Source: a virus
Taxonomy: Duplodnaviria; Heunggongvirae; Uroviricota; Caudoviricetes
DNA length: 7,164 nucleotides
Virus record (IMG/VR): IMGVR_UViG_2695420763_000004
Direction: 5' to 3' (one strand)
Below are positions 740 through 7,164 of the stretch, one piece after another; positions within the stretch are counted from its first letter, which is position 1, and each line of letters begins with the position of its first letter. A program made the position numbers and the translations under genes. Below the pieces are notes generated by a model that was given only the letters and a program-made list of their open reading frames with translations, was not told the origin of the DNA and ran no database searches.

Positions 740-3700
740 TCAACGAATACTGATGCCGGAAGCCGCTTTTTTGGTCACAATCACCGTACAGTCGGTGATA
801 TTGCCTGCCCCCTGATTGCCTTTCTGGAAAATCTTAAACTCCAGAGTGACGCTACCACCACCACTAGGCATATCAATAACTGCACTGTAACTACCGGGAA
901 TGGCCCCTTTAGTTTCTCTGGATGCGATTAATACGCCGTTTTTGCGAACTTCAAAACCATAACCCGTGTATCGCGTGCCTCCTGGGTTATTTCCGCTCCC
1001 CGGATCGTCATACGCTATACCGTTAAAAATAATGGGCGGAATAATAATCTGGCGGTCAAAGTTATGATCATCGCTGATGGTGACTGTAACCGTCCCGTTT
1101 GGTGTTTCCGTGTTACCCCACGTACCGACTTTTTTCGGGAAGGCTTTTGATACAGCTTTAACGAAATCCCCTCTGACCTGGGTCGCCTCCAGCATGCCCT
1201 TAATCGTACAGTTCTGGTTAATCGTGACATTGTTGAGCGTTCCTGAGTTCGCATTCACACTACCACTGATATCCGCATTTTTAGCGGTCAGCTTTCCGTC
1301 TGATGTCAGGGAAAATACCGGAGGACTGCCACCGCTGGTAATGGTGGGGGCCGTCAGGCGCTTCAGGAACACGTCGTTCATGAATATCTGATTGCCCTGC
1401 GCCACAAACATCGGCGTTTCATTCCCGTTTGCCGGGTCAATAAATGCGATACGGTTAGCGGCAACCAGAAACTGACTCAGTTTGCCTTCCTCCGTGTCCT
1501 CCATGCTGAGGCCAATACCCGCGACATAATGTTTGCCGTCTTTGGTCTGCTCAATTTTGACAGCCCACATGGCATTCCATTTATCGTTGGCATCCTTCCA
1601 CTCTTTCGAAAACTCCTCCAGTCTGCTGGCGTTATCCTCCGTCAGCTCGACTTTTTCCAGCAGCTCCTTGCCGAGATGGGATTCGGTTATCTTGCCTTTG
1701 AAAAAATCCAGGTAACCTTCCGCATCATCGCTCGCCCGACCGACGGCCTCCACGAATGCCGATTTGCCAACGGTGTTCACACTGCGGATATAAAAGTAAT
1801 AATCATGGCCCGGTTTGATATTGATACTGGCGGCTATCCAGTACAGCGCCGTACCAAGATAGCGGGCTGTGGTTTCAACCTGCCTGATATCCGCAATCCG
1901 CTTTTCCGAGAACCAGAACTCAAACTGTACCGTCGGATCATAAACCGCAAGATGCGGCGTGGCGGTTATCTGAAAATAGCCCGGCGTCAGCTCAATCCGA
2001 GACGGCGCTGCCGGTGCGGCAATCCGGAACGATACCGATGCCGGATCGCCCTGCTGTCCCCACGCATTTACCGCCCGGACTGTCAGCCTGTAGTTCCCCA
2101 GCGCCAGTTGCGTGAAGCGGTATGTGGTTTCCGCCGTCCGGGCCGTGCTGACCAGCCGCTCACTGCCGTCATCCGCTGCCACGGTCAGGCGAAGCAGGAA
2201 GCTCACGCCCTTCACCACCTTCGGCGTGTCCCAGCGGGCCAGTACCTGATACTCCCCGCTGTCTGCGGTGACTTCGGCAGTCAGGTGCTGCACCGCTGGC
2301 GGCGTGACACCATTCACCGTGCCGCTCTGGTCGCCGTCAAAGTGCGCCCCGTTATCCACGATGGCTTCTTTTTCCGGTACATGCTGCACGGCAGTGATGG
2401 CATACGTGCCGTCATCGTTCTCACGGATACTCACACAACGGAACAGGCGCTGGCGCAACGTCGGCAACTTCAGCCCCCATACGCTGTATCCGGCAACGCC
2501 GTCAGGAACACGGCTCACTTTTACCTTCACGCCGTCGGTGACGGACTGGACCTCCACGCTGACCGGATTGCCACTTCCGTCAACCAGGCTTATCAGCGTG
2601 GTACCGGAGGATGGCAGCGTGATTTCACGGTCGAGCGTCAGCGTCCGGGTCTGGCTGTTCACCGCCAGCACGCGCCCGCCGGTGCTGATACCGGCATAGT
2701 CATCATCGCAGATTTCAATGACATCGCCCGGTACATGGCGAAGCCCTTCCGCACCCACGCTGAAGTCCACGGTCTGCGTTTCCAGCAGCTCCGTTTTAAT
2801 CAGCCACAGCCCGGCTCGGTGTGCCTGCCCCCGGCTGGTACAGCCAAAGGCATCCATCTTCGTGACGTTACGACCGTAACGGGCAATGGCCTGCGTGTCC
2901 TCCACAAGCTCTGTCGCCGTCTCCCAGCCGTTATCCGGGTCAATCCAGTTCACCTCAACGGCATTATGGCGGTCCTTGAGGGCGCTGAAGCTGTAGCGGA
3001 ACGGCGCGCCATCATCCGGCATCACCACATTACTGCGGTTATAGGTCCACACCTTATCCGACGGTCGGTCCTGCACGAACGTCAGCGTCTGCCCGTTCCA
3101 TACCGGCATACAGCGCATCGCCGAGCAGAAATCACTGAGCACATCCCACGCCTTGCGCTGTGTGGTCAGGTACGCATTACAGGTGATGCGCGGCTCCGTG
3201 CCGCCAAAGCCGTCCGGCACTGACTGGTCGCAGTACTGGCCGATGATATACAGCGCCCATTTATCCACATCCGCCGCACCAAGACGTTTTCCCATGCCGT
3301 AGCGCGGGTGGGTCAGCATATCCCACAGACACCAGGCCATGTTGTTGCTGTATGCCGGTTTTAACGTTCCATCCCAGATACCACTGTATTGCCGCGTCTG
3401 CGGGTTATAGTTCGACGGCACCTGCAGAATGCGCCCGCGAAGATGATAATTACGGCTCACCTGCTGGCTGCCGAACTGCTCCGAGTCCACCTGCACGCCG
3501 ACCAGTGCCGTGTTCGGGTAGCACTGTTTCACATCGATGATTTCGGTGTATGACGACCAGAGCGTTTTGTTCTGCAGCTGGTCTGTGGTGCTGTCCGGCG
3601 TCATCCTGCGCATCCGGATATTAAACGGGCGCGGCGGCAGGTTATCCACCACCACCGAGGCCAGATACTGCGAGGTGGTTTTGCCCTTAATGGTGATGTC

Positions 3701-4153
3701 TTTTTCCGTCACCCAGCCACCGTTACGTTGTATCTGAACCAGCAGGCGGACTTCCGATGGATTCCGGTCCCCCTTTGAGGTGGTTTCCACCAGTGCCTGC
3801 ACGCCGAAAGTAAAACGCAGACGGTCAATGTTTGCCGACGTGATGGTCCGGGTGATCGGCGTGTCATATTTCACTTCTGTACCGAGCACCGTCTCGGAGC
3901 CGGAGGATTCAAATCCCTCCGGCGGTGTCTGCTCCTGCTCACCGGCCCGGAACACCACCGTGACGCCGGATATATTGGTATTCCCCTCACTGTCCAGCAC
4001 CGGCGTACTGTTCAGCAGCACGCTTTTTAATCCATCCACCGGACCTTCAACCGGCCCTTCGCTGATGGCATCGATCACACTCAGCAGCTGCGTGGACTTC
4101 AGGTTGTCCTTCGCTTCGCGCGGGGTATGCCCCTTACTGCTGCCTTTACCCAT
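740..4153 (-). CDS. J: Central tail fibre / host specificity protein J (tail tip attachment protein)
   Basis: 1137-aa ORF. From the N-terminus [34 protein letters not shown]... through roughly residue 960 it is near-identical to my recollection of lambda gpJ (1132 aa). The last ~160 residues are related but clearly diverged. GGAG Shine-Dalgarno (plus 4162-4165) lies 8 nt upstream of the ATG (4151-4153). Position between I and lom matches lambda. Confidence 0.95.
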
Positions 4154-4161
4154 TCGTCATG

Positions 4162-4165
4162 CTCC
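4162..4165 (-). promoter_or_regulatory. Shine-Dalgarno sequence for J
   Basis: Minus-strand GGAG, 8 nt upstream of the J ATG. Confidence 0.6.
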
Positions 4166-4195
4166 ATAAACGATAAAACCGCCCGGAGGCGGTTT
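4166..4195 (-). terminator. Terminator-like hairpin in the I-J intergenic spacer (possible attenuator or mRNA-stability element)
   Basis: Perfect inverted repeat aaaccgcc (4176-4183) / ggcggttt (4188-4195) with loop cgga (4184-4187). On the minus-strand RNA the GC-rich stem is followed by UUUUAUCGUUU (plus 4165-4175), then the J SD and start codon. Confidence 0.45.
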
Positions 4196-4213
4196 CACAT
4201 AAAACGTTTTTCA

Positions 4214-4885
4214 TCAGCGACCAATCACCACAACCTGACCACCATCCCCTTCGTCTGCCGTGCTGATCTCCTGAGAGACCACCCGCGACCCCACGCGCAT
4301 TTCACCGTACAGAACGGGCAGAACATTGCCCTGGGCAACCATGTTATCCAGTGACGAGAAATACGTGTTCTGTTTGCCGTTATCTGTACTGGCTGCCGTG
4401 GGCGTCCTGGCTTTCGGTGCCAGCATCTGCGCCACACCACCGAGCACCATACTGGCACCGAGAGAAAACAGGATGCCGGTCATACCACCGGCCCCAATGG
4501 CTGCCCCCCATGCTGCAAGGGTGGCTCCGGCGGTAAAGAATGATCCGGCAATGGCGGCAGCCCCCAGGACAATCTGGAATACGCCACCTGACTTGGCCCC
4601 GGCGACTCTGGGAACAATATGAATCACAGCGCCATCAGGCAGAGTCTCATGTAACTGCGCCGTTAACCCGGACGTGCTGACGTCCCGCCCGGCAATCCGT
4701 ACCTGATACCAGCCGTCGCTCAGTTTCTGACGAAACGCCGGGAGCTGTGTGGCCAGTGCCCGGATGGCTTCAGCCCCCGTTTTCACACGAAGGTCGATGC
4801 GGCGACCAAATCGTTGTAAATCCCCGTAAAGGCAGATGCGCGCCATGCCCGGTGACGCCAGAGGGAGTGTGTGCGTCGCTGCCAT
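4214..4885 (-). CDS. I: Tail tip assembly protein I
   Basis: 223-aa ORF MAATHTLPLASPGMARICLYGDLQRFGRRIDLRVKTGAEAIRALATQLP..., matching lambda gpI (223 aa) from memory. The start overlaps the 3' end of K by 103 bp in a different frame, as in lambda. Tandem stops TGATGA at the 3' end. Confidence 0.93.
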   Translation of the reverse strand: MAATHTLPLASPGMARICLYGDLQRFGRRIDLRVKTGAEAIRALATQLPAFRQKLSDGWYQVRIAGRDVSTSGLTAQLHETLPDGAVIHIVPRVAGAKSGGVFQIVLGAAAIAGSFFTAGATLAAWGAAIGAGGMTGILFSLGASMVLGGVAQMLAPKARTPTAASTDNGKQNTYFSSLDNMVAQGNVLPVLYGEMRVGSRVVSQEISTADEGDGGQVVVIGR

Positions 4886-5526
4886 TTGTCGGTGTACCTC
4901 TCTCGTTTGCTCAGTTGTTCAGGAATATGGTGCAGCAGCTCGCCGTCGCCGCAGTAAATTGCGGCGTGATTCGGCACTGATGAACCAAAACAGCACAGCA
5001 GCACATCGCCCGGCTGTGCCGCTGACAACGGCACCTGATACAGCCCCGTCGCCTCCAGATTATCCAGATAGAGATTCTGACCGTGACGCCACCAGTCATC
5101 CTCACGATAAAAGTCCGGCATCTCAATCCCCGCCAGATGATAAGCATCCCGGAACAGTGTGTAACAGTCCGTCACACCGTGCTCAAAGCGCCGCCCGGTG
5201 AGATGCGGCACACAGCGGAACTTATGAATCGTCCCCCGGCAGACCAGCCACCACGGCAAATCACTCTGCACCTGCAGCCGCCGGTCGGCCTCACTCAGCC
5301 AGGGCAGACCACCGGGGTGGCTGTGGACCAGCGCCACAATCTCACCCTGCATTTCTGCCTGCAGCCAGTCTTCCGGCGACATACGGAAATACGCCTCCGG
5401 CTCACCGGAGATATTCACGCAGGGAAAATATCTTTCCCCCTCCGGCGTGCTTACCACGAAGCCGCACGACTCCGCTGGCGCACATCGCCGGGCGTGCGCC
5501 AGAATCGCTGATTCTGTCTGTGTCAT
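4783..5526 (-). CDS. K: Tail tip assembly protein K (JAMM/MPN metallopeptidase-like plus NlpC/P60-like domains); long 247-aa form, classical 199-aa start would be at 5382
   Basis: 247-aa ORF MTQTESAILAHARRC... The ATG at 5524-5526 is 5 nt downstream of the L stop. The classical lambda K annotation (199 aa) corresponds to the in-frame Met49 (codon 5380-5382), which is preceded by GGAGG at a 13-nt spacing. JAMM-like motif HSHPGGLPWLSEAD (H68, H70, S78, D81). A DCYT cysteine (C121) and downstream His residues are consistent with an NlpC/P60 papain-like fold. Confidence 0.9.
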   Translation of the reverse strand: MTQTESAILAHARRCAPAESCGFVVSTPEGERYFPCVNISGEPEAYFRMSPEDWLQAEMQGEIVALVHSHPGGLPWLSEADRRLQVQSDLPWWLVCRGTIHKFRCVPHLTGRRFEHGVTDCYTLFRDAYHLAGIEMPDFYREDDWWRHGQNLYLDNLEATGLYQVPLSAAQPGDVLLCCFGSSVPNHAAIYCGDGELLHHIPEQLSKRERYTDKWQRRTHSLWRHRAWRASAFTGIYNDLVAASTFV

Positions 5527-5531
5527 GGGAT

Positions 5532-6230
5532 TTACTGCGAAAGTTTGTTAATGGAAAGGAAGCCGCCAAAGTTGCCGACGTTATTGCGGAACTTACAACC
5601 GCTCAGGCATTTGCTGCATTTATCCTTCGTGATATCGGACGTTGGCTGGTCATATTCATCCGCGACAGCCGGACCGCTATAACCGCACTCGTCACCGCGA
5701 TAGGTCCAGGTGCAGGTGTTGGCCAGCATGATACGTCCCGGAAAAACAGCGCCATCCGTTTCCGTCGGCGTGGACAGTACAAAGGAGGCACTCACCGCGC
5801 TCAGTTCGCTGCACTGCTCAATGCGCCAGCGGCTGATCACCTCCTGCTCCGGATCGGCGTAACTGTTTCCGTTGACGAAGTTCACCGCATCCAGAAAACG
5901 GGCGTAAACCTTACGCCGGACCACCGCTCCGCCGACCAGACTCTGCATATCTTCCGCCATCCCGGTGACCATACCGTACAGGTTAGAAACCGTCAGCGTG
6001 GGGCGCGTACTGGTGCCTTTGCCATTCAGTTCAAAACCGCTCCCCTGAATGGGATACGGCTGATACTGTCGCCCCTGCCAGGTGACCGGCTCACCTTTTT
6101 CGTTCTGCTCATTACAGAAAAAATAACGTTCTCCACCGACCTCTGTCAGGTCGATTTCCCAGAGCACCACGCTGGCCGACTGCTCCGCACGGGTGCATTC
6201 ATTCAGTGTTTCCTGCCGGATATCCTGCAT
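5532..6230 (-). CDS. L: Tail tip assembly protein L
   Basis: 232-aa ORF MQDIRQETLNECTRAEQSASVVLWEIDLTEVGGERYFFCNEQNEKGEPVTWQGRQYQPYP..., matching lambda gpL (232 aa) from memory. Its start codon shares one nucleotide with the M stop (ATGA-type overlap). C-terminal Cys cluster C-x8-C ... C-x2-C-x3-C. Confidence 0.95.
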   Translation of the reverse strand: MQDIRQETLNECTRAEQSASVVLWEIDLTEVGGERYFFCNEQNEKGEPVTWQGRQYQPYPIQGSGFELNGKGTSTRPTLTVSNLYGMVTGMAEDMQSLVGGAVVRRKVYARFLDAVNFVNGNSYADPEQEVISRWRIEQCSELSAVSASFVLSTPTETDGAVFPGRIMLANTCTWTYRGDECGYSGPAVADEYDQPTSDITKDKCSKCLSGCKFRNNVGNFGGFLSINKLSQ

Positions 6231-6559
6231 CAGTTCACCACCTGTTCAAACTCTGCGCTGAACTCAACACGCAACATACTGACCCGCGACGACCATTTTG
6301 CGCAGGTCACCTTTATCTGCCGCCACTCATAAGGCGGCGTCCACAGAAAGGATTTCCAGCCCCCGTGCTCTTCCAGAAACGACTCCAGTACCGTGGCCTC
6401 CTCACGGGGGACAGAAAGCGTCACGCTGTACGTTTTCAGGTTGGCATTCAGCCCGGCAGGCGCTCGCTGAGAATAGCCATCACCAAAGCGCACCTTTCTT
6501 ACAGAAGGGACCGAAGCCACATCCATACCGGGTTTCACTTTCCAGCGGAAGGTCTTCAT
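6230..6559 (-). CDS. M: Tail tip assembly protein M
   Basis: 109-aa ORF MKTFRWKVKPGMDVASVPSVRKVRFGDGYSQRAPAGLNANLKTYSVTLSVPREEATVLESFLEEHGGWKSFLWTPPYEW..., matching lambda gpM (109 aa) from memory. Its start overlaps the H stop by 4 bp. Confidence 0.95.
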   Translation of the reverse strand: MKTFRWKVKPGMDVASVPSVRKVRFGDGYSQRAPAGLNANLKTYSVTLSVPREEATVLESFLEEHGGWKSFLWTPPYEWRQIKVTCAKWSSRVSMLRVEFSAEFEQVVN

Positions 6560-7164
6560 CGTCCACCTCCGGAGAACAGGCCACCATCACGCATCTGTGT
6601 CTGAATTTCATCACGGGCACCCTTGCGGGCCATGTCATACACCGCCTTCAGAGCAGCCGGACCTATCTGACCGTTCGTGCCGTCGTTGTTAATCACCACA
6701 TGGTTATTCTGCTCAAACGTCCCGGACGCCTGCGACCGACTGTCCGCCATGCTGCCCGGTGTACCGACATAACCGCCGGTGGCATAGCCGCGCATCAGCC
6801 GGTAAAGATTCCCCACGCCAATCCGGCTGGTTGCCTCCTTCGTGAAGACAAATTCACCACGGTGAACAATCCCCGCTGGCTCATATTTGCCGCCGGTTCC
6901 CGTAAATCCTCCGGTTGCAAAATGGAATTTCGCCGCAGCGGCCTGAATGGCTGTACCGCCTGACGCGGATGCGCCGCCACCAACAGCCCCGCCAATGGCG
7001 CTGCCGATACTCCCGACAATCCCCACCATTGCCTGCTTAAGCAGAATTTCTGTCATCATGGACAGCACGGAACGGGTGAAGCTGCGCCAGTTCTGCTCAC
7101 TGCCGGTCAGCATCGCCGCCATATTCTGTGCAATACCATCAAAGGTCTGCGTGGCTGCACTTTT
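6556..7164 (-). CDS. H: Tail tape measure protein H, C-terminal fragment (5' end lies beyond the window)
   Basis: The frame is open from the window edge (7164) to the stop at 6556-6558. The track shows only the part from an internal Met (7122), but the 14 upstream codons (KSAATQTFDGIAQN) contain no stop. The Gly-rich C-terminus ...GIVGSIGSAIGGAVGGGASASGG...GGLFSGGGR matches the lambda gpH C-terminus from memory. Position immediately upstream of M matches lambda. Confidence 0.9.
   Translation of the reverse strand, partial: KSAATQTFDGIAQNMAAMLTGSEQNWRSFTRSVLSMMTEILLKQAMVGIVGSIGSAIGGAVGGGASASGGTAIQAAAAKFHFATGGFTGTGGKYEPAGIVHRGEFVFTKEATSRIGVGNLYRLMRGYATGGYVGTPGSMADSRSQASGTFEQNNHVVINNDGTNGQIGPAALKAVYDMARKGARDEIQTQMRDGGLFSGGGR

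Follow-up and report, generated by a model that had tools for sequence, protein, structure and literature searches.

We posit, at a probability of roughly 55%, that the tail-tip protein gpI of the phage analyzed here is a pro-protein whose N-terminal ubiquitin-like (Ubl) domain is cut off by the JAB domain of gpK, the product of the neighboring gene. Under this proposal gpI would be made with a MoaD/ThiS-type Ubl (approximately residues 14–97), a glycine-containing junction (residues 96–101) and a virion part, the last comprising two glycine-zipper-like hydrophobic helices (residues 102–129 and 137–155) followed by a plug and β-strands (residues 156–223), with three copies of the C-terminal part occupying the tail-tip lumen. 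The Ubl would work in assembly alone, as a solubility or steric pro-domain of the very hydrophobic gpI, and would be cut at the 96–101 junction before, or at the same time as, the tip is joined to the tube. As the protease, the zinc peptidase (JAB/JAMM) domain of gpK is the most likely candidate; gpK is encoded just upstream of I, needed in tip assembly and absent from virions. The hypothesis is already known, as it was put forward for the same protein in 2006 (PMC1779556), and the window itself (the whole 7,164-nucleotide stretch of DNA that was analyzed) adds no new biology. The present analysis refines it on three points: the conserved Ubl terminus is G96–A97, with G101 as a second candidate for the cut, the JAB domain is found only in a 247-aa form of K, and the long overlap of K and I is no family trait. 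The roles of gpK and gpI have been a question in lambda tail assembly since the 1970s. If the K JAB domain does remove the gpI Ubl, the pair would provide a clean bacterial-virus case of Ubl–JAB chemistry acting as an assembly checkpoint, with relevance for the engineering of tailocins and phage tails.

The tail-tip module and its K and I genes

The minus strand of the window is a lambda-type tail-tip module consisting of H (3′ end only, 6556–7122), M (6230–6559), L (5532–6230), K (4783–5526), I (4214–4885), J (740–4153) and lom (85–669), all on that strand. K is given here in its long form of 247 aa, with JAB/JAMM and NlpC/P60 domains, while I (tail tip assembly protein I, or tip plug protein) is an open reading frame of 223 aa plus stop. 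Over its full length, the window DNA is closest to lambda h434, with 97% (97.3%) identity, and shows 96% identity to phage 434. The lambda gpI/gpK system (8IYK, 8IYL, 8K35, 8XCG, 9E7M) shares with the window both the order H-M-L-K-I-J-lom and the 103-nt K/I overlap, and the results published for gpI and gpK of lambda apply directly to the pair in the window. The differences from lambda are four substitutions in the plug of gpI at residues 163–166 and a J with a 434-type end. At the protein level, gpI is identical to lambda gpI (PDB 8iyk/8iyl/8k35/8xcg) at 219 of 223 positions with the differences confined to these four residues, and is 100% identical to gpI of phage 2G7b. The four residues (window 4388–4399) read TAAS here and RIQT in lambda, and lie inside the lumen-sealing plug segment 159–175. 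The receptor-binding end of 434 type is encoded by the 3′ end of J (740–1150, minus strand), with J being 1137 aa long as against 1132 aa in lambda.

Pfam assigns gpI residues 14–97 to the Lambda_tail_I/TAPI family (PF06805; E = 1e-28, 100 bits against a cut-off of 23.8), a family numbering 3179 representatives at 50% identity. As is characteristic of this family, I is flanked in a siphophage tail module by the genes for the K-type peptidase and the J central fibre, and gpI displays the three-part build of a Ubl, hydrophobic Gly-rich helices and a small C-terminal domain. Residues 1–13 (4847–4885, minus strand) constitute an N-terminal extension absent from most relatives, of which residues 1–10 are predicted at a pLDDT of 59 by AF2. 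Most of the distant relatives start level with Met14, and the commonest NCBI gene call in E. coli prophages (210 aa, cluster P0012) likewise starts there. The start of gpI is ambiguous between Met1 and Met14: a Shine–Dalgarno-like site (GAGAGAGG) occurs only at Met1, 11 nt upstream of it, and the OM418627 record annotates a ribosome-binding site.

The out-of-frame overlap of the 3′ end of K with the 5′ end of I, through which the preliminary description had tied the expression of the two genes together, is present as described (103 nt at 4783–4885, minus strand; frame offset 2), but it is confined to lambda-like phages and is no feature of the family. To survey the latter, 16 phages were sampled down the whole tblastn ranking against phage records, covering lambda-like phages, T1, phi80, HK97-like phages, ES18, SSU5 and phages of Pseudomonas, Mannheimia, Serratia, Klebsiella and Pectobacterium. 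All 16 of these distant phages preserve L-K-I-J as their gene order. Elsewhere the K/I overlap measures 1–26 nt (4 nt in D14Q and T1, 8 in phi80, 13 in SSU5, 16 in Motto and 26 in MezzoGao); Opt-169 has a 1-nt gap between the genes, and in 535AP2, mEp234, Fostie and BR143a they stand 268–750 nt apart with morons or terminators between them. The long overlap arises from a 17-aa C-terminal tail on K together with the 13-aa N-terminal extension on I.

K–I fusion proteins of E. coli genomes were considered as natural JAB–Ubl fusions and rejected, as each occurs only once and is joined either within the 103-nt overlap or by a deletion (P0010, P0013, P0014, P0017, P0019, P0034 and others; in P0034 a deletion fuses K 1–65 to I from about residue 43). 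They are frameshifted or decayed prophage genes, and cases of this kind may account for the TAPI–JAB fusion listed in earlier work.

The 60-nt gap between I and J holds a hairpin at 4160–4200 (minus strand; GAAACCGCC-UCCG-GGCGGUUUU, then AUCGUUUAU) that looks like a terminator. Its centroid structure has a stability of −17.4 kcal/mol with a z-score of −2.8 versus shuffles, and it is missing from the output of a simple terminator scan. Consensus scans of 4000–5700 returned one promoter-like site versus 0.7 expected and two terminator-like sites versus 1.2 expected, with none above the shuffled expectation.

The ubiquitin-like domain of gpI, its junction and its fate

The structure prediction proposed in the preliminary description as the check on a ubiquitin-like gpI N-terminus bears that reading out, with a confident β-grasp at approximately residues 14–97 of the 1–101 segment. 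AF2, supplied with an alignment of 68 gpI relatives (31–86% identity), reaches pLDDT values of 92–97 across residues 11–90 and places strands at 14–19, 29–33, 60–64 and 87–92 and helices at 21–26, 37–47, 49–57 and 74–78. The tail that follows (residues 93–99) is predicted to be flexible (pLDDT 68), and the helices at 100–129 and 137–155 are of lower confidence. In Foldseek searches against the PDB, the top 50 matches are exclusively SAMP1, MoaD, CysO, Urm1, ubiquitin or SUMO, the best being SAMP1 (2l52, E = 3.9e-4), with a TM-score of 0.74 to MoaD (1fm0_D) and TM-scores of at most 0.77 normalised to target. A profile of the domain also weakly matches the ThiS/MoaD chains 4n6e_B, 1v8c_A and 3rpf_C (E 0.4–1.5). 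[quoted passage not shown]

As predicted, gpI displays the β-grasp fold of the ThiS/MoaD/ubiquitin-like superfamily but does not possess the free Gly-Gly carboxylate at the C-terminus on which an E1-like enzyme acts, its glycine being internal. Moreover, no gene for an E1-like adenylating enzyme is found in the tail module, either in the window or in the 16 phage loci. Given the internal glycine, the alanine or serine at position 97 and the absence of an E1-like gene from the module, gpI as encoded shares the fold of these proteins, yet is no sulfur carrier or modifier. A peptidoglycan hydrolase activity, speculated for the gpI N-terminus in PMC11101478, was rejected on the grounds of the predicted fold (AF2, Foldseek). 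P0168, a protein of 2783 aa with 23 matched stretches, was examined as a possible poly-Ubl and rejected as a low-complexity repeat protein.

Downstream of the Ubl, the description of the remaining protein stands as originally given: residues 102–156 form a 55-aa segment, in which Ala (14) and Gly (11) make up 45% and charged residues are absent, followed by a polar C-terminal part at 156–223. Kyte–Doolittle means over 19 residues are 1.1–1.8 in the hydrophobic segment. Within it, helix H1 (residues 102–129; 4499–4582, minus strand) contains an invariant G108 and is delineated by hydropathy, the AF2 helix at 100–129 and PMC11101478, while H2 (residues 137–155; 4421–4477, minus strand), with invariant G143 and G150, is delineated by AF2, the invariant columns and the cryo-EM papers. 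The polar part (4217–4420, minus strand) comprises the plug at 159–175 and β-strands, as seen in PDB 9e7m and the accompanying papers.

Structures determined by others place the C-terminal part of gpI as a trimer in the tip lumen (PMC10721106, PMC12617516, PMC11101478). The lambda gpI model begins at residue 135 in one study (PMC10721106) and at residue 134 in another (PMC12617516), with the 9e7m chains spanning 133–222, while closed-state lambda gpI is resolved from residue 101 on (Ge and Wang, PMC11101478). The Ubl part is not visible in any solved lambda or F-pyocin tail tip. Mass spectrometry (MS) of lambda virions recovered a single gpI peptide with 9.87% coverage, and among the tryptic peptides of gpI only the C-terminal one (202–223, 22 aa) yields that coverage. 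In the F-pyocin homologue PA0640, the N-terminus is absent from the mature particle by MS and EM and present in assembly-stalled mutants, and its removal has been termed a proteolytic checkpoint by the authors of the preprint (bioRxiv 10.64898/2026.02.24.707460). Direct MS proof of the absence of the Ubl thus comes from the F-pyocin homologue only, the corresponding evidence for lambda being missing density and the single MS peptide. Removal of the gpI Ubl in the course of tail assembly is very probable and fits both the structures of others and the F-pyocin MS.

The junction at which this cut would fall (residues 96–101, G-A-K-S-G-G; 4583–4600, minus strand) was delimited by conservation, alignments and the lambda model. 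Residues 1–101 of gpI indeed end in HIVPRVAGAKSGG, with G100–G101 at window positions 4583–4588. However, the proposal of cleavage at this Gly-Gly fares poorly, as the dipeptide is not the conserved feature: G100 is found in 30 and G101 in 58 of the 68 relatives, versus 66 for G96, with P92 being invariant. Nor is a lone Gly-Gly distinctive in gpI, since four such dipeptides are present (100–101, 133–134, 149–150 and 215–216). Position 97 is Ala, Ser or Gly in 67/68 relatives (Ala or Ser in 64/68). The tail motif P-x-V-x-G-[GAS] comes after the last strand, and the named phages show the junction pattern P-x3-G-[AS]-[KG]-x-[GSA]-G-[VIL]-[FL]-Q. In profile alignments, the C-termini of ThiS/MoaD chains (3rpf_C and 4n6e_B included) fall at gpI G96, and a profile–sequence alignment lays QLHETLPDGAVIHIVPRVAG of gpI on SFDHPLTDGDEVAFFPPVTG of MoaD, equating gpI G96–A97 with MoaD G80–G81. 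These alignments identify G96–A97 as the homologous Ubl terminus and G101 as a second, slightly less conserved candidate site, making cleavage at Gly-Gly 100–101 doubtful; the scissile bond would lie after G96/A97 or after G101. Neither candidate glycine is universal: MezzoGao-type phages are without G96 (the Klebsiella phage MezzoGao junction reads RARKNGG), and ES18-type phages are without G101. In ES18 and S137, VPVVEGA runs directly into a single hydrophobic helix and residues 98–101 are missing. The junction at 96–101 is matched by residue 101 being the first visible residue in the lambda model. Gly-Gly 133–134 had also been a candidate maturation site, several cryo-EM models beginning at 133–135, and was rejected because residues from 101 on are resolved in one lambda model and the loop that carries it is deleted in most relatives.

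ES18 (L007 1977–2507) and S137 (L018 2135–2692) stand out in other respects as well, with a short gpI that has one hydrophobic helix rather than two and no 98–101 linker. Their records start gpI downstream, at annotated lengths of 115 and 148 aa, without part or all of the Ubl. The open frame encodes the Ubl, with no ATG at its start.

The domains of gpK and the candidate proteases

K combines two peptidase domains, recognized by Pfam as Prok-JAB (residues 3–104, E = 6e-14) and NLPC_P60 (residues 111–224, E = 1e-12; 4855–5196, minus strand). The JAMM motif read from the sequence in the preliminary description proves intact: the zinc-binding segment HSHPGGLPWLSEAD at residues 68–81 (5284–5325, minus strand) is an exact HxHx7Sx2D and is accompanied by the catalytic Glu19 in AESCG (5470–5472, minus strand). 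This corresponds to the JAMM/MPN+ definition E-x(n)-H-S/T-H-x7-S-x2-D (PMC300881), with the whole of the motif being present only in the 247-aa ORF. The second domain is of the papain-like NlpC/P60 type by both its profile match and its triad of Cys121, His187 and His199. Both domains are found in all 16 K homologues of the sampled phages, across which E19, H68, S69, H70, S78, D81, C121, H187 and H199 are invariant. A strict regular expression had returned the JAMM motif as missing from 7/16 of these homologues; this was rejected, as the spacer is longer (7–10 residues in some of the 16 phages) and the catalytic residues are invariant in the alignment.

The form of K that is made is critical to the proposal. 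Public lambda-type records start K at Met49 (5380–5382), giving a protein of 199 aa that drops the first 48 residues (5380–5526, minus strand), Glu19 among them. As a consequence of this annotation, a 2020 review saw just the peptidase domain (52–182 of 199). If only the 199-aa K were made, the JAB domain would be without its Glu and first strands; the domain is whole in the 247-aa ORF only, and the JAB hypothesis requires this form. The long ORF opens 5 nt beyond the L stop codon and is not preceded by a Shine–Dalgarno site, and the sole strong ribosome-binding site in K is a GGAGG 11 nt upstream of Met49. All 16 phage K homologues (236–279 aa) start level with the ATG of the 247-aa form, and the Prok-JAB and PDB 2kks alignments to K begin at residues 3–7. 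Both forms may be made. gpK is not found in virions (PMC10721106, PMC12617516), and its F-pyocin homologue PA0639 is essential in tip assembly (bioRxiv 10.64898/2026.02.24.707460).

We found no published test of K-dependent gpI cleavage in the literature. Produced recombinantly and on its own in E. coli, PA0640 is stripped of its N-terminal region by host proteases (bioRxiv 10.64898/2026.02.24.707460), so that cleavage does not strictly depend on K, at least under those conditions. This observation lends weight to the possibility, which we hold to be unlikely though worth serious consideration, that the Ubl is removed by something other than the JAB domain, be it the NlpC/P60 domain of K, a host protease, or unspecific trimming of a linker left exposed after burial of the C-terminal part in the tip. 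The flexibility predicted for 93–99 (pLDDT 68) would suit such trimming, and C121/H187/H199, the triad of the NlpC/P60 domain, match the JAMM residues in invariance; should K indeed be missing from virions, a cell-wall role for this domain is not obvious. Against this, a Ubl beside a JAB peptidase is a recurrent and specific prokaryotic pairing (PMC1779556), and the conserved small residues G96, A/S97 and G101 suggest specific recognition rather than random trimming. We continue to view the JAB domain of K as the likely agent of the gpI cut.

Decidedly improbable is a further scenario, that lambda-type phages do not cleave gpI at all and carry it at full length in the virion, with the Ubl rendered invisible by a flexible tether inside the tube. 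The lambda cryo-EM papers describe the N-terminal domain only as unresolved (PMC10721106, PMC12617516, PMC11101478) and the MS coverage of gpI is too thin for proof of absence, both of which would accommodate an uncleaved protein; yet the F-pyocin homologue is demonstrably processed, the sole lambda peptide is C-terminal though the Ubl has several good tryptic peptides, and three 10-kDa domains would have to share the lumen with the gpH coiled coil. That the domain is missing from the very particle expected to deliver it also weighs against an enzymatic or carrier function for the gpI N-terminus. While its fold and tail resemble those of the sulfur carriers MoaD, ThiS and CysO, it is a plain 84-residue β-grasp with no hydrolase match in Pfam or Foldseek, and the tail module encodes no E1-like adenylating enzyme to serve it, making such a function extremely improbable.

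A more elaborate version of the JAB proposal, which we regard as quite unlikely, would make gpK a two-headed tail-tip maturation protease, with the JAB domain cutting gpI at G96–G101 and either NlpC/P60 or the same head cutting gpH to gpH*. In that event, the removal of the gpI Ubl would be an obligatory checkpoint that licenses tape measure protein and tube to dock, and the pair would represent a minimal virus-encoded Ubl/deubiquitinase module devoted to assembly control rather than signalling.

Related systems and the 3′ end of H

The comparative-genomics proposal invoked for lambdoid I and K in the preliminary description is traceable to Iyer, Burroughs and Aravind (Genome Biol 7:R60, 2006, PMC1779556), who predicted that the TAPI Ubl is released at its terminal Gly by the JAB of TAPK. 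Theirs is the same hypothesis as the one considered here, with a Ubl whose C-terminal Gly is conserved, then a linker rich in Gly and a C-terminal domain, the Ubl being released by the JAB of K. It differs in that the 'linker' is here two conserved hydrophobic helices, and in that the conserved Gly is here pinned to G96, with G101 second. The F-pyocin pair PA0640/PA0639 is homologous to gpI/gpK (PDB 25vf_9, E = 1e-17 to gpI); the particle holds PA0640 127–200 only, the N-terminus being removed on maturation, and PA0639 is essential and not in the particle. In contrast to the phage pair, it belongs to a tailocin, and the PA0640 junction reads GSKQSG without a Gly-Gly.

The CysO/Mec+, QbsE/QbsD, SAMP/HvJAMM1 and MoaD/ThiS systems share the same β-grasp with gpI and likewise have a JAMM peptidase encoded alongside. 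In such prokaryotic Ubl–JAB pairs, cleavage by the JAMM enzyme follows the Ubl's terminal Gly. gpI differs from them in being without an E1-like enzyme, in having a Ubl that forms the N-terminus of a structural protein and is no free carrier, and in that Ala or Ser usually stands in place of the second Gly in the gpI family. No further use is known for its Ubl once released. A functional parallel to the other end of the protein is offered by the plug domain of T5 pb3, which has the same place and role as the gpI C-terminal trimer in closing the tube and has been proposed to enter the outer membrane (PMC10721106). However, the T5 plug is an insertion in the hub protein, with no Ubl pro-domain and no separate K-type protease (PMC10721106).

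gpH is possibly a second substrate of the protease that acts on gpI. The 3′ end of H in the window encodes a hydrophobic Gly/Ala-rich stretch of the tape measure protein (MVGIVGSIGSAIGGAVGGGASASGGTAIQAAAA; 6931–7029, minus strand), roughly where the literature places the cleavage of gpH to gpH* (residues ~690–712). In composition this stretch is like the H1 and H2 helices of gpI, and the C-terminal gpH piece stays gpI-bound.
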